NCBI GenBank assembly: GCA_964423505.1
Contig: CAYREX010000006.1
Span: 930 to 64,929 of the forward strand
Origin: an uncultured bacterium
Lineage (GTDB): Bacteria > Fermentibacterota > Fermentibacteria > Fermentibacterales > JCC-6
DNA length: 64,000 nucleotides
Direction: 5' to 3'
Positions 5,652 to 56,346 of this stretch are shown here, piece after piece. How positions within the stretch are numbered: position 1 is the first letter of the stretch; each line of letters begins with the position of its first letter. The notes under the pieces were generated by a model that was given only the letters and a program-made list of their open reading frames with translations, did no database searches and was not told where the DNA came from. The translations under genes were made by a program, and so were the position numbers.

Positions 5652-5885
5652 ATGTCTGATCTGACGAAAAGGGCTACTGTCTACCTTGATCCTGCGCTAC
5701 ACCGGGCACTGCGACTCAAGTCCGTAGAGACTTCAAGATCCATATCGGAACTGATCAACGATGCCATTCGAGAAGAACTGGCAGAGGACGCGGATGATCT
5801 GGCCGTCTTCCGTGCACGGATTGACGAGCCCACCGTAACGTTCGAGGCCTTCGTTGAAGGACTGAAGCGTGATGGCAGGCTATAG
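5652..5885 (+). CDS. Ribbon-helix-helix antitoxin (CopG/RelB/ParD-like), 77 aa
   Basis: RATVYLDPALHRALRLKSVETSRSISELINDAIREEL is an RHH DNA-binding motif. It overlaps the downstream toxin gene. Confidence 0.7.
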   Translation: MSDLTKRATVYLDPALHRALRLKSVETSRSISELINDAIREELAEDADDLAVFRARIDEPTVTFEAFVEGLKRDGRL

Positions 5886-6129
5886 GATTCTTATCCGGAA
5901 ATCGGTTCGGAAGGATCTTGATGGAATCCCGAAGAAGGATGTGCAGCGAATCGTCAAGGCAATCAGCAGTCTAGCCGAGGATCCGCGGCCGAGGCAATCC
6001 AAGAAGTTATCCGGAGAAGAGAAGTACAGGCTTCGGTGCGGATCTTACCGGGTGCTCTACGAGATTCTGGACAAAGAGCTGGTTGTGTACATCGTTCGAG
6101 CCCGGCATCGTAGAGACGCATATAGATAG
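5872..6129 (+). CDS. RelE/ParE-family type II toxin, 85 aa
   Basis: YRILIRKSVRKDLDGIPKKDVQRIVKAISSLAEDPRP...YRLRCGSYRVLYEILDKELVVYIVRARHRRDAY matches the RelE/ParE fold pattern. Confidence 0.75.
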   Translation: MAGYRILIRKSVRKDLDGIPKKDVQRIVKAISSLAEDPRPRQSKKLSGEEKYRLRCGSYRVLYEILDKELVVYIVRARHRRDAYR

Positions 6130-6135
6130 AGAGCG

Positions 6136-6180
6136 AACAACAGCATGCAGTAGGCAACCTGCTGATGCTGAGAGTGTCGA
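6136..6180 (+). repeat. Degenerate terminal attC-like element at the array/core junction
   Basis: AACAACAGCATGCAGTAGG..CCTGCTGATGCTG is a partial palindrome. No clean GTT right end. The GC-rich core sequence begins just after. Confidence 0.35.
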
Positions 6181-6280
6181 CTCGCTTGACCACTGGCGTG
6201 ACATCCGGTCCGGAGCTCGAGAGGTCTGTGGGTACTCATCGCCGGCGACGGATGGAGGCGGTCCTGAGGACCGCTGCGCT

Positions 6281-6790
6281 TCAGCGCTTGTAGCCTATCC
6301 TGTGGAGAAGCTCTATGCGGTTCTGGCGGTCCTCGTCTATCTCCACCGCCTGGGGTGGCTCGCCGTCTATCACGCCGAGGACGCCTCCGCCCTGGTCGGT
6401 CCTGGCCCTGATGACCTGGAGCGGGTTGGCGGTGGCGCAGAAGATGCGGCAGACCTCCTGGGTCTGCTTGATGCGGTTCAGGACCTGGATGGGGTAGGTC
6501 CCGTGGAGGACGATGAGGAAGGTGTGGCCGCAGGCGAGGTCGAGGATGTTCCTCTCGGCTATCTGCCGCAGCTCCAGGTCGGTGCCGTCGCTCCGTACCA
6601 GCCTGGGGCCGGAGGCCTCGGCGAAGGCGATTCCGAAGGCCGCGCCGGGGACGGCGGTGGCGATGGCCTCGTAGAGGTCCTCGACGGTCTTGATGAAGTG
6701 GGACTGGCCGAGGATGACGTTGCAGCCCTCGGGGAAGTCCAGCGGGACTACATCCAGGTCTATCGTGCCGGTCGTCTCGATTCCGTTCAT
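6281..6790 (-). CDS. Adenosine-specific kinase-like protein (DUF355 family), 169 aa
   Basis: Size and overall pattern resemble the small adenosine-specific kinase family. RBS ggaggag upstream. The assignment is tentative. Confidence 0.4.
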   Translation of the reverse strand: MNGIETTGTIDLDVVPLDFPEGCNVILGQSHFIKTVEDLYEAIATAVPGAAFGIAFAEASGPRLVRSDGTDLELRQIAERNILDLACGHTFLIVLHGTYPIQVLNRIKQTQEVCRIFCATANPLQVIRARTDQGGGVLGVIDGEPPQAVEIDEDRQNRIELLHRIGYKR

Positions 6791-6809
6791 GTCTCCTCCG
6801 CGGGTGCTT

Positions 6810-8228
6810 CTAGTAGCGCCTGCGCTTCCTGGCCGAGGGGATGCCCAGGTCGGCGCGGTAGTTGGCCACGGTCCGGCGCTTGACCTCCATGCCCGCCTCC
6901 GCTAGGAGCTCGGCGAGCTTCGCGTCGGAGAGCGGGGCCTTCTTGTCCTCGTCCTCTATCAGCATCCTGAGCTCCTCCTTCACGGTCCTGCTGGAGACGG
7001 TGCCGCTCTCGGCGGGCACGCCCCGGGAGAAGAAGAAGCGCATCTCGTGTATGCCCTTGGGCGACTGGACGTACTTGCCGTTGATGGCCCGGCTTATGGT
7101 GGACTGGTTGTAGCCCAGGGCGTCGGCGACGTTCTGGAGGGTGAGGGGCCTCAGGTCCTCTATGCCGTTCTCGAAGAAGCCGGCCTGGTAGTCCGCCAGG
7201 AAATCCCCTATGCGGGTGACCGTCTCCTGGCGCTGCATGATGGAGCGGATGAACCAGGAGGCGCGCTGGAACTTCTTCTTGACGTACTCCCTGGCGTCGT
7301 CTGAGGAGCTGGGGGACTCCAGTATGCGTCGGTTCCTGGCGGAGATGGAGAGGGTGGGGAAGCGGTTGTCGTTCAGGGTGGCGACGAACCTGTCCCCCAC
7401 CCTGGTGATGATGATGTCCGGGATGACCGCGGCGTTGCTGCCGGAGTGGAAGATTCCGCCGGGCCAGGGGTTCAGCCGGGAGACGGCGTCCAGCGCCTCC
7501 TGGACCCGCTGGGGGGTCTCCCCCAGGGCCTCGGCAATGGCCCTTATCCTGTGCTCGGCCATCTCGTAGAAGTAGTCGGAGACCATCCTGCGCTCCACGC
7601 TGCCCTCGTCGTAGCCCAGCCGCTCCAGCTGCAGGTCCAGCGCCTCGGAGACGGTGCCGGAGCCGACGCCTACCGGGTCCATCTCCCTGACCACCTCCAG
7701 GGCCCTGCGTAGCAGCTCCCTGTCCCCCTCCCACCCGGCCTCCAGCTCGTACTCCGGGAGGGAGAGCAGGCCGTGGTGGTCCAGGGAGTAGACGACGTAG
7801 ATGACAGCCTCCTCCAGGTCCCTGCGGAGGTTCAGGTCGTAGACCTGCTCAAGCAGGTGCTCGTAGAGGGTCTTCTCGGCCACCGGCTCCGGGGTCCAGG
7901 GCTCGTCGTCCTCGCTCCAGGTGGCCGAGGGGCCCTCGCCGGTGTGCTCCTCTATCTTCCGGAGGATGTCCAGCGGGTCGCTCTCCTCGCTGTCGCTCCT
8001 GGAGGGCTCCTCGTCCCAGTCGCTCTCCTCGGCCTCCGCCTCGGTCTCCTGGGTCTCCTCCCGCTCCTGCTCCAGTAGGGGGTTCTCCTGGAGCTCCTGG
8101 GAGATGAGGTTCTCCAGCTCCTGAGAGGGGAGCTGGAGTATCTCCAGGGCCTGGCGTATCTTCTGGGTGAGGACCAGCTTCTGGGTCTGGGCCAGCCTGG
8201 CCTGCTGCTGAAGCTTCATCCTCGGCAT
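6810..8228 (-). CDS. rpoN: RNA polymerase sigma-54 factor RpoN
   Basis: C-terminal RpoN box RRTVANYR, an HTH and a core-binding region. Start placed at MPRMKLQQQARLAQTQKL, the conserved N-terminus. The upstream Arg/Gly-rich extension of the ORF is rejected. Confidence 0.9.
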   Translation of the reverse strand: MPRMKLQQQARLAQTQKLVLTQKIRQALEILQLPSQELENLISQELQENPLLEQEREETQETEAEAEESDWDEEPSRSDSEESDPLDILRKIEEHTGEGPSATWSEDDEPWTPEPVAEKTLYEHLLEQVYDLNLRRDLEEAVIYVVYSLDHHGLLSLPEYELEAGWEGDRELLRRALEVVREMDPVGVGSGTVSEALDLQLERLGYDEGSVERRMVSDYFYEMAEHRIRAIAEALGETPQRVQEALDAVSRLNPWPGGIFHSGSNAAVIPDIIITRVGDRFVATLNDNRFPTLSISARNRRILESPSSSDDAREYVKKKFQRASWFIRSIMQRQETVTRIGDFLADYQAGFFENGIEDLRPLTLQNVADALGYNQSTISRAINGKYVQSPKGIHEMRFFFSRGVPAESGTVSSRTVKEELRMLIEDEDKKAPLSDAKLAELLAEAGMEVKRRTVANYRADLGIPSARKRRRY

Positions 8229-8230
8229 CT

Positions 8231-8965
8231 CTAGAGCCTGAACCTCTCTCCCAGGTATATCTTCCTCGCCTCCGGGTCCTCCGCCAGCTCGGTGGCGGAG
8301 CCTGAGATGAGAATCCTCCCGTCGTACATGATATACGCCCTGTCGGTTATCTCCAGGGTCTCCCGGACGTTGTGGTCGGTGATGAGTATGCCCAGCCCCT
8401 TCTCCCTGAGGCCGCCGACGATGGACTGTATGTCGGCGACGGCTATGGGGTCTATGCCTGCGAACGGCTCGTCGAGGAGCAGGAATGCCGGGTTGGTGAC
8501 CAGCGCCCTCGCTATCTCCACCCTCCTGCGCTCGCCGCCGGAGAGGGTGTAGGCCTTCTGGGTCCTGACCCGCTCTATGCCCAGCTCCCCCAGGAGCTGA
8601 TCGCACCTCCGCCTCCGCTCCCTGCGGCCCAGGCCGGTGGTCTCCAGGATGCTCATGAGGTTGTCCTCGACGGTCATCTTGCGGAAGACGCTGGACTCCT
8701 GCGGGAGGTAGCCTATCCCGAGCCTGCAGCGCCTGTACATGGGCAGCCTGGTTATCGGCCTCTCGTCCAGGAAGACCTCACCCTCGTCCGGGCGGATGAA
8801 GCCTACTATCTGGTTGAAGGTGGTGGTCTTGCCGGCGCCGTTCGGACCTAGGAGGCCGACCACCTCCCCCCTGGCGACGGAGACGGAGACCCTGTCCACC
8901 ACCGCCCTGCGGCGGTAGCGCTTCACCAGGTCGCTCGTCCTGAGAACCCTCGGCCCTTCCGGCAT
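8231..8965 (-). CDS. lptB: LPS export ABC transporter ATP-binding protein LptB
   Basis: Walker [12 protein letters not shown], signature [15 protein letters not shown], and a position immediately upstream of rpoN. Start at [13 protein letters not shown]. Confidence 0.9.
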
Positions 8966-10014
8966 CAGATGGAGCCCTCCCTGTAGCTGTAGGTCCCCGA
9001 CACGGTGCCGCTGACCCTGATGAGCCCGACGGAGCCGTCCTCGAAGCCTATCTCGAAGAGGTCGCCCCGGACCGTGTTCATCTCCTCCCGGGCGGCGGCC
9101 TCCCCCCCGCTGTCCACCGTGAGGCTGGCCGCTCCCCAGATGGAGATGGAGTCCGGCTCCTCGTCGGTGAAGGCGAAGTAGGCGCTCTCCGAGTCGAACC
9201 ATGTCTCCGAGGGGGGCGATACGCCGTCGTCCAGGAAGTGCCCGCTGGCGGCCCCCTCCACCCGGACGGTGGAGCGGCCGCTCCCCTCGTCCATGGTCAG
9301 CTCCATCCAGTCGCCGGAGAGCTCACCGTCCGGTGTGGTGAGCACCGGGGAGCCGAACAGCTCGAACCGCTCGTCGTTCCCCATGTAGATCAGGTACTCC
9401 GCCGTGGCGGTCAGCTCCCGGGCGGGCATGAGAACAAGGGCGTCGCCCTGGGCCTCGGCCCTGTTGCTGTCCGGCAGGAACTCCAGCCTGTCGGCGGTGA
9501 CCGTGAGGCTGTCGCCGTCCTCCACCCTGCGAAGTACCGGGTCGACGGTGACGAAGAGGCTGCCCCTCTCCCTGTCGTACATGGCGTACTCCCCCTCGAC
9601 GGTTCCGAGCCAGGGGCCGGTCATCACCACCGAGTCGGTGGCAACGGCCTTGCCGGAGCTGCGGAAGTAGACCACCTCCCTCGCCTCCACCACGCTCTCC
9701 CCGTCGGTGAGGGTGACGTTGCCGGTCATGGTCATGATGCCGGTCTCCCGGCTGTACTCCAGCATGTCGGAGGTGCCCGAGAGGGTATCCGTCACCACCT
9801 CGACGTTCGAGTGGAAGACGGCGTCGCCGGCCTGCTGCCAGACGGTGCCGGAGTCGGAGGTGACGGTGACCTCTCCGTCGGTGACGGAGACGTTGCCCCA
9901 CATGTCCAGCCTGACCTCTCCCCCCTCCAGCTCAACCCCGGTGGCCCGGTCGGCGGAGACGGTGTAGACGTCCTGCGAGGCCAGCAGGGCGGCGGCCAGC
10001 AGCAGCTCAGTCAA
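8965..10014 (-). CDS. lptA: LptA/OstA-like periplasmic protein (tandem OstA N-terminal-like beta-jellyroll)
   Basis: Signal peptide and a repetitive beta-rich sequence. Position between lptC-like and lptB matches the conserved lptC-lptA-lptB order. Confidence 0.5.
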
Positions 10015-10573
10015 TCTCCAGCTCCCCGGTGCGGACCGCGGTGAAGTCCTCCTCTATGTCCACTCCCTCGGCGGCGTCCAGGCCGGTGTCCAGGTCCACG
10101 TCCCTGCCGGAGAGGACCGTCCAGCCGACGGAGTCGGGGACGGTGAGCACCACCAGGCAGTCGCTGTGCATTATCCCGAGGCTGTCTATCCAGATTATCT
10201 CCTCGGTCTCCATGTGCCTGTCGTCGTTGGTCTCGGCCTGGACGTCGCCCCATATCCGAAGCAGGCCGGAGCCGAGCTCCACCCGGCCCGAGTCGCCGGT
10301 GAGGACCGTGGTGGGGATGTCCTCCTCGAAGAAGGTGAGGTCGACCACGGAGAGGACCACCACGCTGTCTCCGTCGCCGTAGACCGCTCTCTCGCTCTCC
10401 AGCAGCCAGGCCCTCTCCCCCAGCTCGGACTGGACCAGGACGAAGTCGCTCACCACCTGGCCGGGGCCCTCCTCCGGGTCCATCTCCACCGGCTCGCCGC
10501 TACCGCACGACGTCGCCAGGAGCAGGGCGGTGAGCCCAGCGGCGATGTATCCAGACCCACTGCTCGGGATCAT
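10007..10573 (-). CDS. lptC: LptC-like lipoprotein
   Basis: Lipobox LLLATSCGSG, ~188 aa, synteny upstream of lptA. Confidence 0.4.
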   Translation of the reverse strand: MIPSSGSGYIAAGLTALLLATSCGSGEPVEMDPEEGPGQVVSDFVLVQSELGERAWLLESERAVYGDGDSVVVLSVVDLTFFEEDIPTTVLTGDSGRVELGSGLLRIWGDVQAETNDDRHMETEEIIWIDSLGIMHSDCLVVLTVPDSVGWTVLSGRDVDLDTGLDAAEGVDIEEDFTAVRTGELEID

Positions 10574-16923: not shown

Positions 16924-17087
16924 CGCGAATCCTTCCTGCTCGGTGCAGGGCCGAACATGATTCCGCAGGTCCCCGGCTGCAAGCCGGGAACCACCTGGGC
17001 GTTGTGGACTTTCCCCTCCTGTACATATAGATTCGTTTCGTTGCAGTAGCATACACGTTACATGATGATGCGGATGAGGAGGATCCG

Positions 17088-18818
17088 ATGAGACTTGCTG
17101 CGGTATTGGCTCTCGCCGTTCTCGCCATGGCGGCGGCGGACACCGTCCTGTCGAGGGTGAACGACGCCCTCGAGGCCGGTGAGATAACGACCGACCAGGC
17201 TGTCCGCTACCTGTGGGACAGCATCCACGACAGGAGCTCGCTTCCCGCCGACCTCGCCGAGGGTGCGGTGGAGGTACCCTGCGGCACTGCCACCATGGAC
17301 AGGATATCCGTCCTCCTCGACGACTGCACCGTTCCGGTCCGCGAGGAGATGCTGGACATCCTCTCCAGGCCTGACGTCGGCGACCCGGAGTACACCTACG
17401 ACACCCCCGACGGCAACTTCAAGATCCACTGGACCGACACCGGCATCAACGCCACCACCCAGAACTGGGTGGAGACCATAGGCGAGGGCATGGAGTACGC
17501 CTGGGAGCAGGAGTGCAACGTCCTCGACTGGGACGAGCCGCCCTCGGACCTGGGCCTCGGCGGCGACGAGAGGCTCGACGTCTACATCCTGCACCTCGAG
17601 GGGGGGGTCATCGGATGGTGCTCCAACGCGGGCAACCCGCCCGACCCGAGCACCCCCGAGAACGACTACGCCAGCCACATAGCCATGAGCAACAGCGAGA
17701 GCTGGGGCACCCTCCAGATACAGTCCACCTGCGCGCATGAGTTCAAGCACGCCATCCAGAACGGCTACGAGGCCGCCGAGCCTAGCTGGTTCAAGGAGAA
17801 CTGCGCCACCTGGATGGAGTACATGGTCGGATACCCCACGTACGCCTCCTACCTCCACGGCGGCGACAACTGTCTCCGCAGGCCCTGGTACGACATCAGG
17901 ACCATGGACGAGGGCCTCTACGAGTACGGCGCTACCCCCTGGCCCATGTACATGGCCGAGAGGTGCTCCGGGAACGAGACAGTCAGGCTCGTCTGGGAGG
18001 AGGCCGCCTCGGTGGTCGGCGCCGATATAATGGCGGCGATAGACAGGGCCGCCCAGGCGGAGGGCATGAGCTTCATGGAGTGGCTCGCAGAGTACGCCGC
18101 CTGGAGGTGGTTCACCGGCAACAACGCCAGCGACAACTACTACCCGATAGGGGAGTGCTCCCTCTGGACTCCGGGTCCCTACACCTTCGCCTACCACACC
18201 TTCGACGCGGCCGACCTGCCGGTCAGCGGCGACGAGGGCGTCTACAGGCCGGAGACCTACGGCCACCACTGGATATGGGTTGACGTCAGCGGCTTCTCCG
18301 ACTGGATAACCTTCGACTTCGACGGCCGGGACAACTTCCCCTGGCACGTGGGGGTCATCTCCACCAACGCAGACCACACGACCACCCAGTTCCAGTGGCA
18401 CGAGGTGGACAACACCGGCGCCACCATATCGCTCGGCGCCGCGACCGAAGGGTGGGACGACGTGGTCTTCTACGTACAGCCCACCTACGAGACCACCCTC
18501 TACATGACCTACGACTTCACCATCGAGGCACAGACCGGCGTCGGGAGCGGCCCCGCCTTCGACATCGAGATGACGCCTGCCTCCAACCCGATTGCCAGCG
18601 GCCAGGCGATTGACGTCAGCATCCCCACCGCCGGCCGGACCACCCTGAACGTCTACGACATGAGCGGACGGATGGTGCAGAGCATCTACTCCGGCCAGCT
18701 CCCGGAGGGCGAGAGCAGCCTTGTCTGGGACGCCGGGAACCTCTCCTCGGGCACCTACTTCCTGATGCTGAGCGCGCCGGGCGGCGGGCTCACCAGCCAG
18801 GTCGTCCTCTCCAACTAG
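17088..18818 (+). CDS. Secreted HEXXH zinc metallopeptidase with T9SS-type C-terminal sorting domain, 576 aa
   Basis: Signal peptide, HEFKH zinc-binding motif, and a C-terminal ~70 aa LNVYDMSGRMVQSIYSGQLPEGESSLVWDAGNLSSGTYFLML...VVL resembling a T9SS/FlgD-Ig-like sorting domain. RBS gaggagg upstream. Confidence 0.65.
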   Translation: MRLAAVLALAVLAMAAADTVLSRVNDALEAGEITTDQAVRYLWDSIHDRSSLPADLAEGAVEVPCGTATMDRISVLLDDCTVPVREEMLDILSRPDVGDPEYTYDTPDGNFKIHWTDTGINATTQNWVETIGEGMEYAWEQECNVLDWDEPPSDLGLGGDERLDVYILHLEGGVIGWCSNAGNPPDPSTPENDYASHIAMSNSESWGTLQIQSTCAHEFKHAIQNGYEAAEPSWFKENCATWMEYMVGYPTYASYLHGGDNCLRRPWYDIRTMDEGLYEYGATPWPMYMAERCSGNETVRLVWEEAASVVGADIMAAIDRAAQAEGMSFMEWLAEYAAWRWFTGNNASDNYYPIGECSLWTPGPYTFAYHTFDAADLPVSGDEGVYRPETYGHHWIWVDVSGFSDWITFDFDGRDNFPWHVGVISTNADHTTTQFQWHEVDNTGATISLGAATEGWDDVVFYVQPTYETTLYMTYDFTIEAQTGVGSGPAFDIEMTPASNPIASGQAIDVSIPTAGRTTLNVYDMSGRMVQSIYSGQLPEGESSLVWDAGNLSSGTYFLMLSAPGGGLTSQVVLSN

Positions 18819-18888
18819 CCAGCCGATTCAAGAGGCGGGGCGGGCAGCCGCCCGTCCCGCCCTCCGACAAACGAAGAGGAAGGAGCCC

Positions 18889-20592
18889 ATGAAGGCTACC
18901 GTACTGCTTGCGGCGGCTCTGGCCCTGGCGACGGGTACCGTCGCGGCCGACACCTCCATGCAGCGGATAATGGACGCTCTGGAGGAGGGCAGGCTCGACG
19001 CCGAGTCGGCGTCGGAGCTGCTCGTGCTCAGCGTGACCGACCCCTCCGCCCTTCCCGGAGAGTACGTCGAGGGGACCGAGCCGGCCCCCAGCGGCACCCC
19101 GGCCATGCTCCAGGCCTACAGGCTCAACCCGGACATGAGGGCCAACAGGCCTAATCTCAGCGGTCCGGAGTACACCCTCACCTCCCCTGACGGACACTTC
19201 CTCGTCCACTGGACCGACCAGGGGGCCGACGCCACCAATCAGTCTTACGCCGAGGGCATAGCCGAGGCCGCCGACTACTCCTGGCAGGTCGAGTGCGACG
19301 AGATGGGCTTCTTCGAGCCGCCGCCCGACGCCGGGGTGGGAGGCAACGACCTCTACGACATCTACATCATGAACATAGGTCCGCTGGGATACACCAGCGG
19401 CGCCGGCGAGTTCCAGCCGCCGGACAGCACCCACGACTGCAGCGCCAGCCACATCGTCATGTGCAGGGGCCTCCAGACCGGGCAGCGCAACTGCACCGTC
19501 TCGCACGAGTTCGCCCATGCCATACAGATGTCCTACGACTACAACGAGCCCATCTGGTTCATGGAGAACTGCGCCGTCTGGGCGGAGGAGCAGGTCTACC
19601 CGGAGGTGAACGACTACGTCAACTACCTCCACGGCGGCGACAACCCGCTCCGCAAGCCCTGGTGGGACATAAGGGACAGCGGCGGCAGCCTCTACCACTA
19701 CGGTGGGGTGCTCTGGGCGATGTACATGTCGCAGAGGCTGGACGACACCGACGTCATCCGGCAGGTCTGGCAGTACTGCGCCGACACCAGGGGCATGAAC
19801 ATGATGGAGGCCCAGGAGGACATGTTCGCCGACCACGGCATGCTCTGGGAGGACGCCTTCATGGAGTACGGCCTTTGGCGCTGGTTCACGGCGGGCAACT
19901 GGTTCTCCGGCTGCGGCCTGTACTTCGACGAGGCGCCTCTCTGGACTCCCGGTCCCTACGTGTTCTCCTACCACCAGATAAGCTCCCTGCCCGCCACCGG
20001 CGACGAGGGAGTCTACTTTCCGGAGAGGTTCGGCATAGCCTGGATACAGGTCGATCTGACCGACTACCAGGACGGCTGGGTCAAAATGGACTTCGACGGC
20101 CGCGACTACTTCGAGTGGAACCTCGGGGCCATCATGTGGGACGAGGGAGAGGACTGGCAGTTCGCCTGGTACGACTGCGACGGGACCACCGGCGACAAGA
20201 CCGTCTCGGTCGACGCCTCCGGGTGGGACTACGTGGTCTTCTTCCCCGCCTTCATCTCCGAGTCCAGCCTCGACCACACATACGACTTCGAGATCACCTA
20301 CGAGAGCGGCGCCCCCGGCGGGGAGACCCCGCGGGACATATCCGTCGCTCCCGCCTCCAACCCGGCGCGTCCGGGGACCGAGCTGAGCTTCTCGGTGCCG
20401 GCCGCCTGCAGGGCGACCCTCCTCGTCTACGACGCATCCGGCAGGGTCGTCGACTCCCTCTTCGACGGCGAGGTGGCCGCCGGCAGCCACAGCGTGAGCT
20501 GGGAGGCCGAGGGGCTCTCCACCGGCTCCTACTTCCTCACCCTCCATGCCGGCAACGCCGCCACCGGGACAAGGGTGGTCCTCACCAGGTAG
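18889..20592 (+). CDS. Paralogous secreted HEXXH zinc metallopeptidase with T9SS-type C-terminal domain, 567 aa
   Basis: Collinear with the upstream protein (TSPDGHFLVHWTDQGADATNQSY..., HEFAH motif, same C-terminal domain). Confidence 0.65.
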   Translation: MKATVLLAAALALATGTVAADTSMQRIMDALEEGRLDAESASELLVLSVTDPSALPGEYVEGTEPAPSGTPAMLQAYRLNPDMRANRPNLSGPEYTLTSPDGHFLVHWTDQGADATNQSYAEGIAEAADYSWQVECDEMGFFEPPPDAGVGGNDLYDIYIMNIGPLGYTSGAGEFQPPDSTHDCSASHIVMCRGLQTGQRNCTVSHEFAHAIQMSYDYNEPIWFMENCAVWAEEQVYPEVNDYVNYLHGGDNPLRKPWWDIRDSGGSLYHYGGVLWAMYMSQRLDDTDVIRQVWQYCADTRGMNMMEAQEDMFADHGMLWEDAFMEYGLWRWFTAGNWFSGCGLYFDEAPLWTPGPYVFSYHQISSLPATGDEGVYFPERFGIAWIQVDLTDYQDGWVKMDFDGRDYFEWNLGAIMWDEGEDWQFAWYDCDGTTGDKTVSVDASGWDYVVFFPAFISESSLDHTYDFEITYESGAPGGETPRDISVAPASNPARPGTELSFSVPAACRATLLVYDASGRVVDSLFDGEVAAGSHSVSWEAEGLSTGSYFLTLHAGNAATGTRVVLTR

Positions 20593-49975: not shown

Positions 49976-52417
49976 ATGAGAGCAATGCCTCTGGTCGCGC
50001 TGCTCCTGCCCGCCATGGCCCTGGCGGCGTGGGTCGACCTCGGCATCGAGGGCACCGACCACGCCGTCCTGGAGGTGGTGGAGTCCACCCCGACCGGGAT
50101 GGTGGTCGAGCTCACCGTCCCCGGCATCGAGATGACGGAGCGGGAGGAGGGCGGCATCGACTACACCATCCTGGGCATGCCCGGGGCCACCTCCACCGCG
50201 CTGGACGAGGGATACCCGATGTTCCCGAAGGTATCCTTCCTCGCGGCGCTCCCCGAGAGCCCTTCCGTGACCGCCACGGTCGAGGCCGTGAGCAGCACCA
50301 CCGTCGGGGCCGTTACCCCCTGGCCCATGCAGCCGATCCAGCCGGACGACGCGAGGGAGCCGGCGCCCTTCACGGTGGTCCCCTCCGCCTACACCTCCGG
50401 CCGGTACCCGCTCGACGCCGTACAGCACACCGTCGACGGCGTCCTCAGGGGAGTGACCGTCGGCAGGTTCACCCTCAACCCGGTCGGCTGGGACCCGGTG
50501 ACCGGAGAGCTGACCGTAGCCTCCCGGATGCGTGTCCGGATAGACTTCGGCGGCACCGCCACGGTCGAACCCAGGCTCTACTCCCGGTTCTGGGCGCCCA
50601 CCTTCCGGCAGTCCATCCTGAACGCCGGTGTCCTGGGCGAGCCGCAGAGGTCGATGGCGGCCCGGGCCGACGGCTACATCGTCGCGCGGACCATGGAGGA
50701 GGCCGTGGACATAGACGGCGCCGACCTGCTGGTGTTGGCCGGCGACGACTTCGTCGACACGATGATGGACGACTTCCTCACCGCCAAGCACGAGCAGGGC
50801 TACCTGACTGCGGTGGTGGCCGCCGGCAGCTGGAGCTCCTCGCAGATAATGAGCTACGTCCAGACCGCCTACGACACCTGGGAGGTTCCCCCCTCCTTCC
50901 TTCTCACCGTTGGCGACGGGCCGCAGCTCGCCCCCCACTACCAGTCCTCCACCGGGACCTACGGCGACAACCGCTACTGCTGCGTCGACGGCTCCGACTA
51001 CATGGCGGACATCTACAACGGCCGCTTCTGCTCCCCCACCGACTTCTACCCCCACATCGAGGAGAAACAGCTTGACTGGCAGTTCGACCCGCTGATGGAC
51101 TCCGACTTCTGGAACACCCTGCTCTGCGCCGGCATGCTCCAGACCTACGGCGGAAACACCTCCGCCAGGTGGTTCCTCTACACCTGCGAGGTGGTCCACG
51201 ACACCTACGAGGACATCTACGGCAAGACCGCCCTCAGGTGCTACATGACGGACGCCACCGTGGACCCGCCCTACTACTACCGCGACGACCTCCCCTCCCA
51301 CGGGGGGATGGTGCCTTCGGAGATAACCTTCGACGGCGTTACGGAGGACGTGACCAACGCCGTGAACGACGGGGTCTTCCTCATCCAGCACCGGGACCAC
51401 GGCAGCATCAGCGGCTGGTCGGAGCCCCCCTACTACACCTCCGACCTGAACGACCTGTCCAACGGCGACAGGACCCCCATGGTGATGAGCTTCAACTGCA
51501 GCACCGGCAACTTCTACTCCAACACCTCCTTCGCCGAGAGCTTCGCCAGGATGGAGGGTGGCGCGGTCATGGTCTACGCCGCGGTCAACACCTCCTACAG
51601 CTACTTCAACGACTACGTGGTCTACGGCAGCTACTGCAGCTTCAACGACGACTTCGTCTCCCCCCCCTACAGCTACACCAACCCCTCCGGCGGCTACCTC
51701 GCCGGGCAGGCGCTCCTGGCCGGCAAACTGGAGATGCAGACCGCCGCCCCCTACAATCCCTACGGCAGCTGGCAGGGCTACGCAGAGAAGACCTGGGACC
51801 TCTTCCTGGTCTTCGGCGACCCGACCATGGACATGAGGACGGCGGTGCCCGAGGCTCTCTCCGTGACTGCGCCGGGCAACCTCCCCGCCGGCTCCACCGA
51901 GGCCACCTTCCAGGTGAGCATGCCCGGGGAGGACGTGGTCGAGGGCGCGCTGGTCTGCCTCCGCAAGGAGGACGAGGAGGTATGGGTCAGCGGCGTCACC
52001 GACGCCTCCGGCTCGGTCACCCTCACCTTCGATCCGATAGCCTCCGCAACGGAGATGGAGTGGATGGTCACCGCTCACAACGCGCTCCCCGAGGAGGGGG
52101 TCATCAACGGCGTGGGCGTCGCCGGCGGTACCGGGGCGGTGATAGGCCGCGTGGGCACGCCGTTCCCCAACCCGAGCCTCGGCAGCGTCACCTTCCCGGT
52201 GACGATGGGCGGCACCGGCGACTTCGACCTGACCGTCTACGACCTGAGCGGCCGCTCCGTGGCCACCGTGCACAGCGGAGAGCTGGCCGCAGGATCCCAC
52301 CAGCTGGTCTGGGACGGCACATCCGGCGGCGCCCCGGCGCCCGCCGGCGTCTACCTGGCCAGGTTCGGCGGCCCCGGAGGGGCCTCCGGTACCTTCACGG
52401 TGGTGCTCACGAGGTAG
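49976..52417 (+). CDS. Gingipain-family (C25) cysteine peptidase with T9SS-type C-terminal sorting domain, 813 aa
   Basis: Signal peptide; catalytic His in LIQHRDHGS and Cys in SFNCSTGNF. The C-terminal DLTVYDLSGRSVATVHSGELAAGSHQLVWDG...GVYLARF...VVL domain is the same type as on the two metallopeptidases. Confidence 0.7.
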   Translation: MRAMPLVALLLPAMALAAWVDLGIEGTDHAVLEVVESTPTGMVVELTVPGIEMTEREEGGIDYTILGMPGATSTALDEGYPMFPKVSFLAALPESPSVTATVEAVSSTTVGAVTPWPMQPIQPDDAREPAPFTVVPSAYTSGRYPLDAVQHTVDGVLRGVTVGRFTLNPVGWDPVTGELTVASRMRVRIDFGGTATVEPRLYSRFWAPTFRQSILNAGVLGEPQRSMAARADGYIVARTMEEAVDIDGADLLVLAGDDFVDTMMDDFLTAKHEQGYLTAVVAAGSWSSSQIMSYVQTAYDTWEVPPSFLLTVGDGPQLAPHYQSSTGTYGDNRYCCVDGSDYMADIYNGRFCSPTDFYPHIEEKQLDWQFDPLMDSDFWNTLLCAGMLQTYGGNTSARWFLYTCEVVHDTYEDIYGKTALRCYMTDATVDPPYYYRDDLPSHGGMVPSEITFDGVTEDVTNAVNDGVFLIQHRDHGSISGWSEPPYYTSDLNDLSNGDRTPMVMSFNCSTGNFYSNTSFAESFARMEGGAVMVYAAVNTSYSYFNDYVVYGSYCSFNDDFVSPPYSYTNPSGGYLAGQALLAGKLEMQTAAPYNPYGSWQGYAEKTWDLFLVFGDPTMDMRTAVPEALSVTAPGNLPAGSTEATFQVSMPGEDVVEGALVCLRKEDEEVWVSGVTDASGSVTLTFDPIASATEMEWMVTAHNALPEEGVINGVGVAGGTGAVIGRVGTPFPNPSLGSVTFPVTMGGTGDFDLTVYDLSGRSVATVHSGELAAGSHQLVWDGTSGGAPAPAGVYLARFGGPGGASGTFTVVLTR

Positions 52418-52516
52418 CCCCCGCAACGCTTGATGGGTCCCGCGTCCGACAGGGCGCGGGGCCCTGCAACCCTCCCGGGCCGTGACCCCGCCAGCTCCGC
52501 GGCATATGGTAAACGG

Positions 52517-54877
52517 ATGAATACACGGTACGACCGGGAGGCCGGGCGTCTGACCACCGGCATCGGCGACCTGATAGCCTGGGCGAGGCTGCCCGACACC
52601 CTGGTCCCCGACGGCGGCGGTGCGCCGGACTTGCAGGCCAGGCAGAGGGTGCATTCCGCCTACCAGAGGCGCCTGGCCGCCGGCGGGTTCGACGTCGAGG
52701 TGCCGCTCTCCCTGGAGCTGGAGGTCCTCGGCATCACCTTCGACCTGCGGGGCAGGGCCGACCTCGTCAGGCGGACGGCATCAGGCATCGAGCTCATCGA
52801 GGTGAAGACCGCCTCCCGCCGGCCCGACCCGGGTCATCCCATGCTGACCCGCTCACGGCACGTGCTGCAGCTCTACTTCTACCTGCAGGCCCTCGCCGGC
52901 GACGTCCCCGTGAGCGCCGCGCTGGTCTACCTCTCGATGGACGGGAGCCCACCGGGCGAGCAGAGGGTCGACATCGACCCGGACGACCCGCTCGTGGAGG
53001 AGGCCTGGTCGGAGATGCTGGAATGGACCGCCCGGACCCTCCTCGCGGAGGAGGCGCGGAGGAGGGAGCAGGAGCGGGCGTTGGGCGGCGATATCTTCCC
53101 CTACGAGGCGCGGAGGCCCGGCCAGGAGCAGATGACCGCCGCGGTACGCGGAGCCCTGTCGGCCGGCCGGAACCTGATGCTGCAGGCTCCCACGGGCACC
53201 GGCAAGACCGCCGCCGTGCTCGAGGGTGCGCTCCGGGCGGTACTTCCCGATAGGGGCGTCCTCTTCTTCCTGACCGCCAAGGGCACGCAGAGGCACATGG
53301 CTGAGGAGACGGTCCGACTGACGGCGGAGAGGGGCCTCCCCCTCCGGGCGGTCACCCTCACCGCCAGGGAGCGTGTCTGCATGCGGGGCAGGCCCAGGTG
53401 CCTCCCGGACGACTGTCCCTGGGCGGAGCGCTTCGGGGAGAGCGTCCGCGCCTCCGGCGTCCGGGAGGAGCTGCTCGGGGAGACGGTCGTCGGACGGGAG
53501 GAGCTGGTGCGCGCAGCGGAGCGCTCCGGCGCATGCCCCTTCGAGCTGGGGCTCTGCATGACCGGCCATGCGGACATCGTGGTATGCGACTACAACTACG
53601 TGTTCGACCCCCACGTCTACCTGAGGCGCTTCTTCGGGGAGCCTGCCGCCGCCTCCCGGTGCCGCCTCCTGATGGACGAGGCGGCCAACCTGCCGGAGAG
53701 GGCCAGGGACTGGTTCTCCCCCACCGTCTCCCGCTCCCTCGTGGAGCGGCTGCTGAGGGAGGGCGGAGGCGGCCATGCCCGTCTCCTCGCCCCCCTCCTG
53801 GAGCCCTGGCTGGCACGCCTCCGCGAGTGGGAGGCCCTTCTCGCGGATGATGGGGACGGCCGGAGAGAGATGCTGCTGCCGGACGATACGCCGCTTCCTC
53901 TCTCGGAGGAGGGCTGGATGGAGGTCCTGGCATCGGCCGAGGACCCCTCCATGGACCTGATGGAGATGGCCCTGGCCGTCTTCGACATGTCCAGGATAGA
54001 CGGACCGGGAGACGACAGGTACCACCTGGTGCTGGACGCCGGCGAGGACGACCTGTCGGTGCAGTGGTTCTGCAGCGACCCTTCCCTGCAGCTGTCCGAG
54101 AGGGTGGGCTCCTGCTCCGGTTGCGTCGCCTTCTCGGCGACCCTGGAGCCCATGGACCACTACCGCCCACTGCTGGGCCTGCCGGAGGATACCCCCGGCG
54201 TGAGTGTCCCCTACCCCTTCCCGCCGGAGAACCTGGGCGTATGGCTGGACAGGACCGTGGACACCCGCTACCGGAGGCGGGAGGCCACCCTGGACGCTCT
54301 GTGCTCCCGGCTGGTCCAGCTGCTGGATGCGGTACCGGGAGCATGGCTCGTCTTCATGCCCTCCTTCGGCTACCTCCGCAACCTGCGTGAGCTGCTGGAG
54401 GGGGCGGGTGTGCCGGTCCTGGCCCAGGAGAGGGCGATGGCCCCGGAGATGCGCGAGCGGTTCCTCTCGAAGCTCTCCTCATGGGAGGGTGCGGCGCTCA
54501 CGGTCTCCGGCGGCATCTTCTCCGAGGGGGTGGACATAAGGAGCGACAGCCTGCGGGGAGCCGTCGTGGCCGGCCCATCGCTGCCCGGTGTGGATCTCAG
54601 GCGGAGGCTGCTCTCCGAGCGCTACGAGTCGACCGGCAGGAGCGGCTTCCTGCACGCATGGGCCATCCCGGGCATGACCCGGGTCGTCCAGGCCGCCGGC
54701 AGGCTGGTCAGGAGCGGTACCCAGAGGAGGGCCCTCGTGCTGGCCGGCGACAGGTTCGCCTGCCGCCCCTACCTCGGGCTGCTGCCGAAGCACTGGTTCG
54801 GCGAGGAGGGCCTCCCGGTACTCGGACGGGACGTCGACGGGATAGTCCGCTTCTTCCGGGAGGAGGGCGGGAGATAA
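52517..54877 (+). CDS. PD-(D/E)xK nuclease domain fused to a DinG/XPD-family Fe-S DNA helicase, 786 aa
   Basis: N-terminal ~200 aa with a D..(ELIEVK) nuclease triad and QLYFYL. Helicase has Walker A LQAPTGTGKT, a four-Cys cluster (CMRGRPRC..C..W and a GACPFELGLC region) between motifs I and II, DEAAN box, and motif VI QAAGRLVR. Confidence 0.75.
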   Translation: MNTRYDREAGRLTTGIGDLIAWARLPDTLVPDGGGAPDLQARQRVHSAYQRRLAAGGFDVEVPLSLELEVLGITFDLRGRADLVRRTASGIELIEVKTASRRPDPGHPMLTRSRHVLQLYFYLQALAGDVPVSAALVYLSMDGSPPGEQRVDIDPDDPLVEEAWSEMLEWTARTLLAEEARRREQERALGGDIFPYEARRPGQEQMTAAVRGALSAGRNLMLQAPTGTGKTAAVLEGALRAVLPDRGVLFFLTAKGTQRHMAEETVRLTAERGLPLRAVTLTARERVCMRGRPRCLPDDCPWAERFGESVRASGVREELLGETVVGREELVRAAERSGACPFELGLCMTGHADIVVCDYNYVFDPHVYLRRFFGEPAAASRCRLLMDEAANLPERARDWFSPTVSRSLVERLLREGGGGHARLLAPLLEPWLARLREWEALLADDGDGRREMLLPDDTPLPLSEEGWMEVLASAEDPSMDLMEMALAVFDMSRIDGPGDDRYHLVLDAGEDDLSVQWFCSDPSLQLSERVGSCSGCVAFSATLEPMDHYRPLLGLPEDTPGVSVPYPFPPENLGVWLDRTVDTRYRRREATLDALCSRLVQLLDAVPGAWLVFMPSFGYLRNLRELLEGAGVPVLAQERAMAPEMRERFLSKLSSWEGAALTVSGGIFSEGVDIRSDSLRGAVVAGPSLPGVDLRRRLLSERYESTGRSGFLHAWAIPGMTRVVQAAGRLVRSGTQRRALVLAGDRFACRPYLGLLPKHWFGEEGLPVLGRDVDGIVRFFREEGGR

Positions 54878-54929
54878 GGAAGGGGACGACGCCGAGGCGT
54901 CGTCCCCGCAGTACCGGGCGGTGCCGGTG

Positions 54930-55334
54930 CTACTCGGTTCCGGGCTCCTCCTCTACGGGAGGCTCCTCGGCGGGAGGCTCCTCCACGGGAGGCTCCTCGA
55001 CCGGGGGCTCCTCGCCCTCGGGCCTGTCGGGCTCCGGCCTGTCGGGCTCGGGCCTGTCGGGCACCGGGCGCTCACCCTCCGGACGCTCGCCCTCCGGACG
55101 CTCGCCCTCGGGGCGCTCACCCTCCGGCCTCTCACCCTCCGGCCTCTCACCCTCCGGACGCTCACCCTCCGGACGCTCGTCCTCGGGCATCTCGCCCTCC
55201 GGGCGCTCGTCCTCGGGGGTCACCTCGGTGTCGCCGTCATCGGCCGGCGTGGGCTCCTCGCCCTCGCCTCCGCCGCATGCAGCGAAAAGAGCAACAAGGG
55301 CGGAGAGGAAGAGCAGCGTAAGGACTTTCCTCAT
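54930..55334 (-). CDS. Pro/Glu-rich tandem-repeat lipoprotein, 134 aa
   Basis: Lipobox LFAACGG, then (ERPEG)x9, (DRPEP)x3, and (EEPPV)x4 repeats encoded by 15-bp tandem DNA repeats. RBS ggag upstream. Confidence 0.6.
   Translation of the reverse strand: MRKVLTLLFLSALVALFAACGGGEGEEPTPADDGDTEVTPEDERPEGEMPEDERPEGERPEGERPEGERPEGERPEGERPEGERPEGERPVPDRPEPDRPEPDRPEGEEPPVEEPPVEEPPAEEPPVEEEPGTE
55020..55215. repeat. 15-bp tandem DNA repeat tract (about 9 + 3 units) inside the lipoprotein gene
   Basis: Repeated ggacgctcgccctcc and ggcctctcaccctcc units on the top strand, in frame. Confidence 0.7.
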
Positions 55335-55422
55335 CTCGTCTCCTTTCGTTTTCTCGACCTCGGTCGAATAAACATAACCGCCTCGTGGTCGAGGCATTGC
55401 TTCCCGCATACTTAACGCGATA

Positions 55423-56346
55423 CTATCTCCGTTCGAGTCCCTTCGTCAAGCCTGACCCGAGCCTGCCTGTATTGCGGAAATGCAGCTTCACCGTGCCCCT
55501 CAGTGCCTCCATCCCCCCAGCCGCGAGGAGCCTCCCGGCAACCCTGTCCGCCTCCCGGCCGGAGCCGGCGGGCAGCCTGACGCCCAGCCTTCCGGAGGCC
55601 TCCTCCATCCAGCGGTCGTATGCAGCCCTGGCCAGTATGGACGCGGCGGCGACCACCACGTCCGACTCGCCCCGGACCGGCAGCTCGAGGCGGTATGCGC
55701 CTTCGGGCATGTGCGGTGCTATCCTCTCCCTCCGGCAGAACCTGTCGACGACCACGACCTCCGGCTCGCAGCCGCTCTCCAGGAGGGCCCCCACCGCTCT
55801 CCCGTGGGCCTGGGCGAGCATGTCCAGGCTGTTGCGGCCCTCGCTCCGAAGCTCCTCGAAGCGCCTGTTGTACTCCTCCGGCTCGATGACCACCAGGGAT
55901 GACTCCAGCTCCCTCTCTCCCATCAGCCCGGCGAGCTCGGCCAGCCTCCGCCTCTCCAGGGTCTTGGAGTCACGGACCCCAAGCCTCCTGAGCCCGGCGG
56001 CCGCGTCCTCCCCGGCGTAGACGGCACACACGGTCAGGGGACCGATGTAGTCGCCCTTGCCGGCCTCGTCGCCGCCTATTCGCGCCCCTCCCCGCGGCTG
56101 CTCCGCCGGCTCCCCCCGGACGAGGCCGAGAGCCCTCTCCTGCAGCGAGGCATCCCCACCGGCCGGGACGACCGACAGACCCTTCCTCCGGGAGTGATAG
56201 AGGTTGACCCCGCACTCGACGCAGCCGTCCGAGAGGGTCAGACGGATGCCGTTCTCCAGGAGCCTCCGGCCGGATACGGCTATCCCCCCCCGGGCGAGGA
56301 GCCGCTCGATGCGGGCGGCCTCGCCCCGGAGCTCGGCGGATATCAC
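55423..56346 (-). CDS. rnhC: Ribonuclease HIII
   Basis: About 90-aa N-terminal domain followed by the RNase HII/HIII catalytic motif IGGDEAGKGDYIGPLTV; length 307 aa. Confidence 0.75.
   Translation of the reverse strand: MISAELRGEAARIERLLARGGIAVSGRRLLENGIRLTLSDGCVECGVNLYHSRRKGLSVVPAGGDASLQERALGLVRGEPAEQPRGGARIGGDEAGKGDYIGPLTVCAVYAGEDAAAGLRRLGVRDSKTLERRRLAELAGLMGERELESSLVVIEPEEYNRRFEELRSEGRNSLDMLAQAHGRAVGALLESGCEPEVVVVDRFCRRERIAPHMPEGAYRLELPVRGESDVVVAAASILARAAYDRWMEEASGRLGVRLPAGSGREADRVAGRLLAAGGMEALRGTVKLHFRNTGRLGSGLTKGLERR

Follow-up and report, generated by a model that had tools for sequence, protein, structure and literature searches.

A 64,000-nucleotide stretch of contig CAYREX010000006.1 (the window), from an uncultured bacterium of the phylum Fermentibacterota, contains at positions 52517–54877 of the forward strand a gene that encodes a nuclease-helicase of 786 amino acids, followed by a stop codon. 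The Pfam domains PDDEXK_1, DEAD_2, HBB, and Helicase_C_2 follow one another in this order along the protein, and the fusion of nuclease and helicase is real and well beyond chance because the domain scores exceed their cutoffs. The gene is a new member of the established EndoDinG family in a little-studied phylum. The EndoDinG subgroup was named by Cheng (2025; PMC11981726) and unites those DinG-like helicases that have a PD-(D/E)XK nuclease domain at the N-terminus together with a canonical Fe-S domain (PMC13650095). Li et al. (2026; PMC13650095) reported the crystal structure (PDB ID 9KQH) and the biochemistry of the DinG protein of Finegoldia magna (FmaDinG), described by these authors as the first structural and biochemical characterization of EndoDinGs. 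An original prediction, made from the letters of the window without database searches, had called the combination a less familiar pairing, which overrates its novelty given a widespread, named subgroup with a structure and biochemistry.

The gene boundaries of the original prediction were correct and are backed by the list of open reading frames, the homologue N-termini, the match to FmaDinG, and the fold match. The start codon is the ATG at 52517, with which the N-termini of all 16 aligned homologues coincide. A TTG start at 52430 was rejected, as the 29-residue extension that it would add occurs in none of these homologues. A protein search retrieved the identical protein from NCBI and Logan, and an exact-protein look-up yielded only contigs of 3–5 kb, which add nothing to the context. 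Relatives that are 40–52% identical carry the names Candidatus Aegiribacteria, Fermentibacteria, or Sabulitectum, and the source genome has a GC content of about 70%.

The N-terminal PD-(D/E)XK nuclease domain

The endonuclease domain comprises approximately residues 1–189 (52517–53083, forward strand), as delimited from Pfam, the secondary structure of an AlphaFold model, and the translation. The Pfam family PDDEXK_1 matches residues 47–184 (38.8 bits, cutoff 22, E = 1.3e-9), which bears out the earlier call of a Cas4/RecB-like domain. In the model the nuclease adopts a beta-alpha-beta(3)-alpha-beta(2) fold followed by a long helix formed by residues 158–189. All elements of the string expected from the sequence, a D-x(n)-E-L-I-E-V-K triad followed by QLYFYL, are present, and it reads D82...G-I-E-L-I-E95-V-K97 and then Q118-L-Y-F-Y122-L. 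The metal-ligand residues H46 and E61 (52652–52699, forward strand) lie upstream of the core triad and the substrate-binding arginine, R80-x-D82...E95-V-K97 (52754–52807, forward strand), and these are followed by Q118-L-Y-F-Y122 (52868–52882, forward strand), the QxxxY motif of RecB/Cas4-like nucleases. The translation of residues 1–190 contains no cysteine, so the domain is without a Cas4-type Fe-S staple.

Conservation of these residues was assessed in alignments of 17 and of 52 homologues, in both of which E61, R80, D82, E95, K97, Q118, and Y122 do not vary; H46 is likewise constant in the smaller alignment, and its conservation in the larger is at least 90%. The count was extended to 81 loci from species-representative genomes of many phyla, one of which is cut by a contig end. 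H46, E61, D82, E95, K97, Q118, and Y122 are kept in all 80 full-length relatives, which belong to at least eight phyla. A HMMER alignment with FmaDinG pairs H40 with H46, E54 with E61, R73 with R80, D75 with D82, E88 with E95, and K90 with K97, so that the query has the identical residue at each of the six FmaDinG positions at which replacement by alanine abolishes nuclease activity (PMC13650095). Pseudo-nuclease N-terminal domains are known in other DinG subgroups (pExoDinG; PMC11981726), and by analogy the domain could be a degenerate, non-catalytic accessory module of a protein that is only a helicase. The probability of this is negligible, because the D/E/K residues, together with H46, E61, Q118, and Y122, have not been lost in any of the 80 full-length relatives, as the original prediction had considered they might be, and because they match the residues that FmaDinG needs for nuclease activity (PMC13650095).

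The helicase core and the Fe-S domain

A full superfamily-2 DinG/XPD helicase with four cysteines between motifs I and II follows the nuclease, as anticipated. Motif I (Walker A) is APTGTGKT at residues 224–231 (53186–53209, forward strand), among the invariant alignment columns, and its residues G229, K230, and T231 are invariant in all 81 loci. The Pfam family DEAD_2 matches residues 284–406 (38 bits, cutoff 21) and encloses the Fe-S domain (53378–53536, forward strand), for which alignments identify C288, C295, C300, and C340 as ligands, equivalent to FmaDinG C282, C289, C294, and C333. These cysteines are kept in 80 of the 81 loci. The Fe-S domain is of the canonical CCCC type and is predicted to bind a cluster. 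The Arch domain is placed between motifs II and III at approximately residues 402–535 (53720–54120, forward strand), with boundaries that are approximate, and is supported by a Pfam HBB match at residues 499–585 and by a helical bundle at residues 406–493 of the model. Motif III is SATL (residues 540–543). Motor domain 2 (54311–54796, forward strand) corresponds to the Helicase_C_2 match at residues 599–760 (81 bits, cutoff 25, E = 1.1e-22) and holds motif V (GGIFSEGVD, residues 665–673) and motif VI (QAAGRLVR, residues 725–732). Motifs III, V, and VI are invariant in the homologue alignments.

Motif II (Walker B) reads D387-E-A-A-N391 (53675–53689, forward strand) and is a DEAA variant of DEAH. 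Its aspartate and glutamate are invariant in 81 of 81 loci. Position 390 is histidine in 77 of these and alanine only in three loci of Fermentibacterota (L003 and L004 among them). The DEAAN form is fixed in the query and in the ten Fermentibacterota homologues of the 17-sequence alignment. The motif II histidine of other DExH helicases has been implicated in the coupling of ATPase activity to unwinding. A further variant, DEAN, is found in a locus of Aminicenantes (L007). In Lactiplantibacillus xiangfangensis (L041, 7890–10265) all four Fe-S cysteines are replaced, by R, L, N, and D, and all nuclease residues are kept, which makes the protein of this lactic acid bacterium a naturally occurring pseudo-FeS EndoDinG.

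Comparison with FmaDinG

The best sequence match in the PDB, by phmmer, is chain A of 9KQH (annotated as DNA 5'-3' helicase, 748 amino acids), which aligns with residues 43–760 of the query at an E value of 8.9e-83 and about 31% identity, the match taking in the N-terminal nuclease region. An AlphaFold2 model built on the 52-sequence alignment has a mean pLDDT of 92.4 and a pTM of 0.92. When it was compared with the PDB using Foldseek, the same chain was again the top match (E = 2.2e-56, 779 columns, TM 0.71/0.75), followed by archaeal XPD (3.6e-30), Escherichia coli DinG (1.9e-22), and Staphylococcus aureus ExoDinG (1.4e-19), with CasDinG matching at 2.5e-17 or weaker. The two proteins share the five domains PD-(D/E)XK, MD1, Fe-S, Arch, and MD2, the nuclease catalytic residues, the Fe-S cysteines, Walker A, the Walker B aspartate (D387, equivalent to D378, the site of the ATPase-dead mutant of FmaDinG), and most of the residues that line the DNA track. 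Of the latter, FmaDinG K249, R578, F698, R733, and P677 are identical in the query (K255, R588, F711, R746, and P690, respectively), and K278 and K280 are conservatively replaced by R284 and R286. The query differs in being about 40 residues longer, in having DEAA rather than DEAH as motif II, and in its Arch contacts, and it differs from the EndoDinGs of the literature in that Fermentibacterota lie outside the orders listed for the subgroup.

Comparison with other helicase and nuclease families

At the sequence level, the helicase core resembles XPD/Rad3 more than it does E. coli DinG. Archaeal and eukaryotic XPD proteins (Rad3; Thermoplasma acidophilum XPD, PDB IDs 4A15 and 9P55) have the four-domain Fe-S helicase core in common with the query and provide its best match outside the EndoDinGs (sequence E of about 1e-25, in addition to the fold match given above). 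The best NCBIfam match is likewise rad3 (TIGR00604), but its 103 bits lie below the cutoff of 247. XPD has no nuclease domain and works in TFIIH and nucleotide excision repair contexts that are absent here. The models for E. coli-type DinG and YoaA are not matched (NF008729, 42 bits against 598; NF053712, 81 against 680), and E. coli DinG was not retrieved by phmmer at E ≤ 0.01.

The ExoDinGs (DinG of Staphylococcus aureus and Bacillus; PDB ID 8ZEF) resemble the query in joining an N-terminal nuclease to a DinG-like helicase under a coupled logic. In contrast to the PD-(D/E)XK nuclease of the query, the ExoDinG nuclease is a DEDD/DnaQ-like 3'-5' exonuclease, and the ExoDinG pseudo-FeS domain stands in place of the four-cysteine Fe-S motif. 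The query does not match the ExoDinG models (TIGR01407, 44 bits against a cutoff of 548; NF005981, 31 against 789). The original statement that the firmicute DinG carries a DnaQ-like domain instead is incomplete, as many Bacillota (Bacillus, Paenibacillus, Clostridia, and Finegoldia) also have the PD-(D/E)XK form.

The nuclease domain belongs with those of Cas4 and AddB/Dna2/Exo5 in the PDDEXK_1 subfamily and has the QxxxY motif in common with them, and the direct match to Cas4 SSO0001 (PDB ID 4IC1) is weak (E = 1e-3). The helicase-plus-nuclease logic of the query resembles that of AddAB and Dna2. An Fe-S staple is typical of the Cas4, AddB, Dna2, and Exo5 nucleases, whereas the only Fe-S motif of the query lies in its helicase. 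The Cas4 model TIGR00372 is not matched (13 bits, cutoff 65), and no cas1 or cas2 was found among the scanned open reading frames of the window.

Predicted mechanism

FmaDinG cuts DNA endonucleolytically with a preference for Mn2+ and unwinds it 5'-3' in an ATP-dependent manner, for which a 5' single-stranded tail is required; its ATP hydrolysis enables nuclease digestion into the duplex (PMC13650095). In the model proposed for it, the motor domains feed DNA to the N-terminal nuclease center via a gate helix (PMC13650095). Because of the homology to FmaDinG and the conservation of the catalytic residues, the query is predicted to be a Mn2+-preferring DNA endonuclease coupled to ATP-dependent 5'-3' unwinding. 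By analogy, the two RecA-like motor domains would bind a 5' single-stranded tail and translocate 5'-3' with ATP, the [4Fe-4S] and Arch domains would part the duplex, and the DNA would be passed into the PD-(D/E)XK domain and cut endonucleolytically, with H46, E61, D82, and E95 as probable metal ligands and K97 as the putative catalytic lysine. ATP-driven unwinding would in this way allow the nuclease to degrade into duplex regions. It may further be speculated that Fermentibacterota, with their fixed DEAA, have re-tuned the coupling of ATPase activity to unwinding, and that EndoDinG is the main machine of the phylum for processing DNA ends and forks, replacing AddAB/RecBCD-type enzymes in these anaerobic bacteria; we consider this unlikely.

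Genomic context in Fermentibacterota

The gene is monocistronic in the window and stands alone between a secreted protease and a lipoprotein, as had been described. The upstream gene encodes a C25 (gingipain-type) peptidase with a propeptide and a C-terminal FlgD-Ig domain and ends 100 bp before the start codon. With regard to possible SOS regulation, no sigma-70-like site was detected by a promoter scan ahead of the EndoDinG gene. A hairpin scan located a perfect, GC-rich hairpin with an 11-bp stem 5 nucleotides after the stop codon (54882–54907), which is likely the shared terminator of two convergent genes. Downstream, and all convergent with EndoDinG, follow a small repeat-rich lipoprotein-like gene, an RNase HIII gene, and a DUF3108 gene. 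The lipoprotein-like gene (54930–55340, reverse strand) encodes a signal peptide ending in LFAAC and consists almost entirely of 15-nucleotide tandem repeats that encode the acidic pentapeptides ERPEG, DRPEP, and EEPPV. Small genes without a Pfam match occupy the same position in three Fermentibacterota loci (L083, L085, and L001). The RNase HIII gene (55423–56346, reverse strand) lies about 550 bp downstream and matches TIGR00716 with an E value of 2.5e-37, its 128.8 bits falling below the cutoff of 161.2; the N-terminal 85 or so residues of its product lie outside the Pfam RNase_HII match.

The position of RNase HIII relative to EndoDinG is the same in every Fermentibacterota locus examined (L003, L004, L083, L084, and L085). 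A link to R-loop removal is known for E. coli DinG, and the recurring arrangement could be taken to mean that the protein processes R-loops or RNA-DNA hybrids together with the neighboring RNase HIII, thereby resolving transcription-replication conflicts. The two genes are, however, convergent and separated by another gene and the hairpin, and therefore are not co-transcribed; their adjacency belongs to a larger synteny block and is not found in other phyla; and FmaDinG cuts DNA much better than RNA (PMC13650095). Such a role in R-loop processing is accordingly very unlikely.

The synteny block was seen in three Fermentibacterota orthologues on long contigs and in L003 and L004. It runs from an aminotransferase to EndoDinG, the small gene, RNase HIII, DUF3108, and sometimes a glycosyltransferase, and continues with an aminotransferase, DUF4416, an N-acetyltransferase, a radical SAM protein, and a tRNA synthetase. 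The orthologues in this backbone are 40–52% identical, and only the upstream peptidase genes vary, so that EndoDinG has the appearance of a core gene passed on vertically in Fermentibacterota. Pfam scans covered 30 open reading frames of the window, the remainder of which is also housekeeping in character (sigma-54, LptA, a lipid A acyltransferase, a KdsD-like protein, a beta-CASP RNase, a carboxyltransferase, iPGM, PurM, and ArgRS). Neither tRNA genes nor Rfam elements were found in scans of the window.

Gene neighborhoods in other bacteria and a possible role in defense or repair

The neighborhood survey clustered the open reading frames within 8-kb flanks of 83 loci by all-against-all BLAST. 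The only broadly recurring clusters are EndoDinG itself and antisense shadow open reading frames; the others are generic multi-copy families (ABC ATPases, histidine kinases, and GGDEF proteins) or reflect synteny at the level of single lineages. No defense gene cluster recurs in the 83 loci, and two associations with repair genes, each specific to a lineage, were found. In six loci of Blautia/Lachnospiraceae (L028, L033, L043, L050, L060, and L077), the helicase gene is preceded at 90–1750 bp, on its own strand, by genes for TIGR03916 ("DNA modification/repair radical SAM") and TIGR03915 ("putative DNA repair protein"), and the TIGR03915 gene directly adjoins EndoDinG in most of these loci. 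The three genes may form a TIGR03916/TIGR03915/EndoDinG operon that links the family to a predicted repair cassette. On the conjugative plasmid pLA01-117_113k of Legionella sainthelensi (L086, 6800–10778 and flanks), a homologue with intact nuclease motifs overlaps by 8 bp the gene for a fusion of a DnaQ-like exonuclease and a GIY-YIG nuclease, in a cluster that also contains LigD, Ku, UmuD with a Y-family polymerase, and an SRAP (SOS-response-associated) peptidase.

The helicase core also raises the possibility of a defense effector, a type IV CasDinG-like or DdmD-like helicase-nuclease that degrades plasmid or phage DNA. CasDinG (Csf4, type IV CRISPR-Cas) has an XPD-like 5'-3' helicase core in common with the query, DdmD and CasDinG both turn up as weaker fold matches, phage and plasmid records contain a few homologues, and the PADLOC model PDLC01439 ("typeIV_DinG; CAS-IV-A associated") matches residues 192–761 with an E value of 3e-90. 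PDLC01439 is, however, an "associated" helicase profile and not a core Csf4 model. The Csf4 model TIGR03117 gives 22 bits where 400 are required, and the matches of the remaining PADLOC Csf4 models are confined to the Walker A region, at E of about 1e-4. CasDinG has a cysteine-less pseudo-FeS module (PMC13650095), whereas the query has four cysteines. No CRISPR array was detected in the 64-kb window by TRF and direct-repeat scans and no cas gene among its Pfam-scanned open reading frames, and the label of a type IV CRISPR protein was rejected on the unmatched core Csf4 models, the Fe-S cysteines, and the absence of cas genes and arrays. The flanking genes are housekeeping genes conserved across the phylum, defense clusters fail to recur among the surveyed loci, and the one ordinary-sized plasmid examined carries its homologue in a DNA-repair cluster. 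Matches covering at least 80% of the query are present in just 3 of 50,697 phage records and 2 of 72,556 plasmid records. A defense effector of this kind is highly improbable, and an immune role of EndoDinG is unlikely. An origin from mobile elements was also rejected, given the small number of full-length phage and plasmid matches, with many matches confined to the helicase part or located on megabase replicons. As a consequence for annotation, PDLC01439 would probably assign a wrong CRISPR-associated label to proteins that are XPD-like or belong to the EndoDinG family.

The context points to repair rather than defense because of the housekeeping synteny, the linkage to TIGR03915 and TIGR03916, and the Ku/LigD/UmuD cluster. 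A role in chromosomal DNA repair or processing, for example in resection or in the removal of damaged or branched DNA, is likely, albeit less certain than the identity of the protein. Among the roles suggested in the original prediction, end resection or DNA processing fits the biochemistry of FmaDinG (PMC13650095), defense finds no support in the genomic context, and R-loop processing is favored weakly at best.

There is thus a strong probability that the protein encoded at 52517–54877, on a chromosome resembling those of Candidatus Aegiribacteria, is orthologous to the EndoDinGs, a subgroup of the XPD/DinG-like superfamily-2 helicases, and acts as a 5'-3' nuclease-helicase, likely in chromosomal repair or processing. 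Several observations weigh against this assignment. The identity to the characterized FmaDinG is only about 31%. The FmaDinG Arch residues D475, F478, and K482, which contact DNA, are not conserved and correspond to E483, L486, and D490 in a gapped, variable region in which the alignment is uncertain; these contacts were reported as EndoDinG-specific and are a property of FmaDinG rather than one that defines the subgroup (PMC13650095). The replacement of DEAH by DEAA in the Fermentibacterota clade could alter the coupling of ATP hydrolysis to unwinding. With regard to function, no neighbor is kept across phyla in the 83 loci, the repair role is less certain in that it rests on a few lineage-specific associations and the absence of a defense context, and the in vivo function of every EndoDinG is stated to be unknown (PMC13650095).

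Distribution and significance

A distribution scan with one genome per species, which gives a lower bound, confirmed at least 593 EndoDinG loci in species-representative genomes. Among the matches listed, the hosts include Bacillus, Paenibacillus, Clostridia, Lachnospiraceae, Tissierellia, Desulfobacterota, Acidobacteriota, Latescibacterota, Aminicenantes, Myxococcota, and two metagenome-assembled genomes (MAGs) of Asgard archaea. Six orders are listed for EndoDinG in PMC13650095, and the known range is now extended well past these, to Fermentibacterota, Acidobacteriota, Latescibacterota, Aminicenantes, Desulfobacterota, many Bacillota, and the Asgard MAGs. The significance of the gene is mostly one of annotation, with "EndoDinG-family Fe-S helicase-endonuclease" in place of "hypothetical" or "PD-(D/E)XK nuclease family protein," and the neighborhood evidence offers hints that the role of EndoDinG lies in repair over defense.

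The two Asgard MAG contigs (L057, Candidatus Heimdallarchaeota, 5672–7840; L068, Promethearchaeia, 8001–10205) carry full-length EndoDinG-like genes with all catalytic residues. These occurrences contrast with the description of the family as bacterial, and both transfer and mis-binning are conceivable.

Elsewhere in the window, three secreted-protein genes on the forward strand (17031–18818, 18772–20592, and 49976–52417) have a C-terminal FlgD-Ig-like domain in common. Two of these are adjacent genes of about 600 amino acids, one with a DUF6055 domain, and the third is that of the C25 gingipain-type peptidase. Fermentibacterota may use the FlgD-Ig-like domain as a common module for sorting or anchoring.

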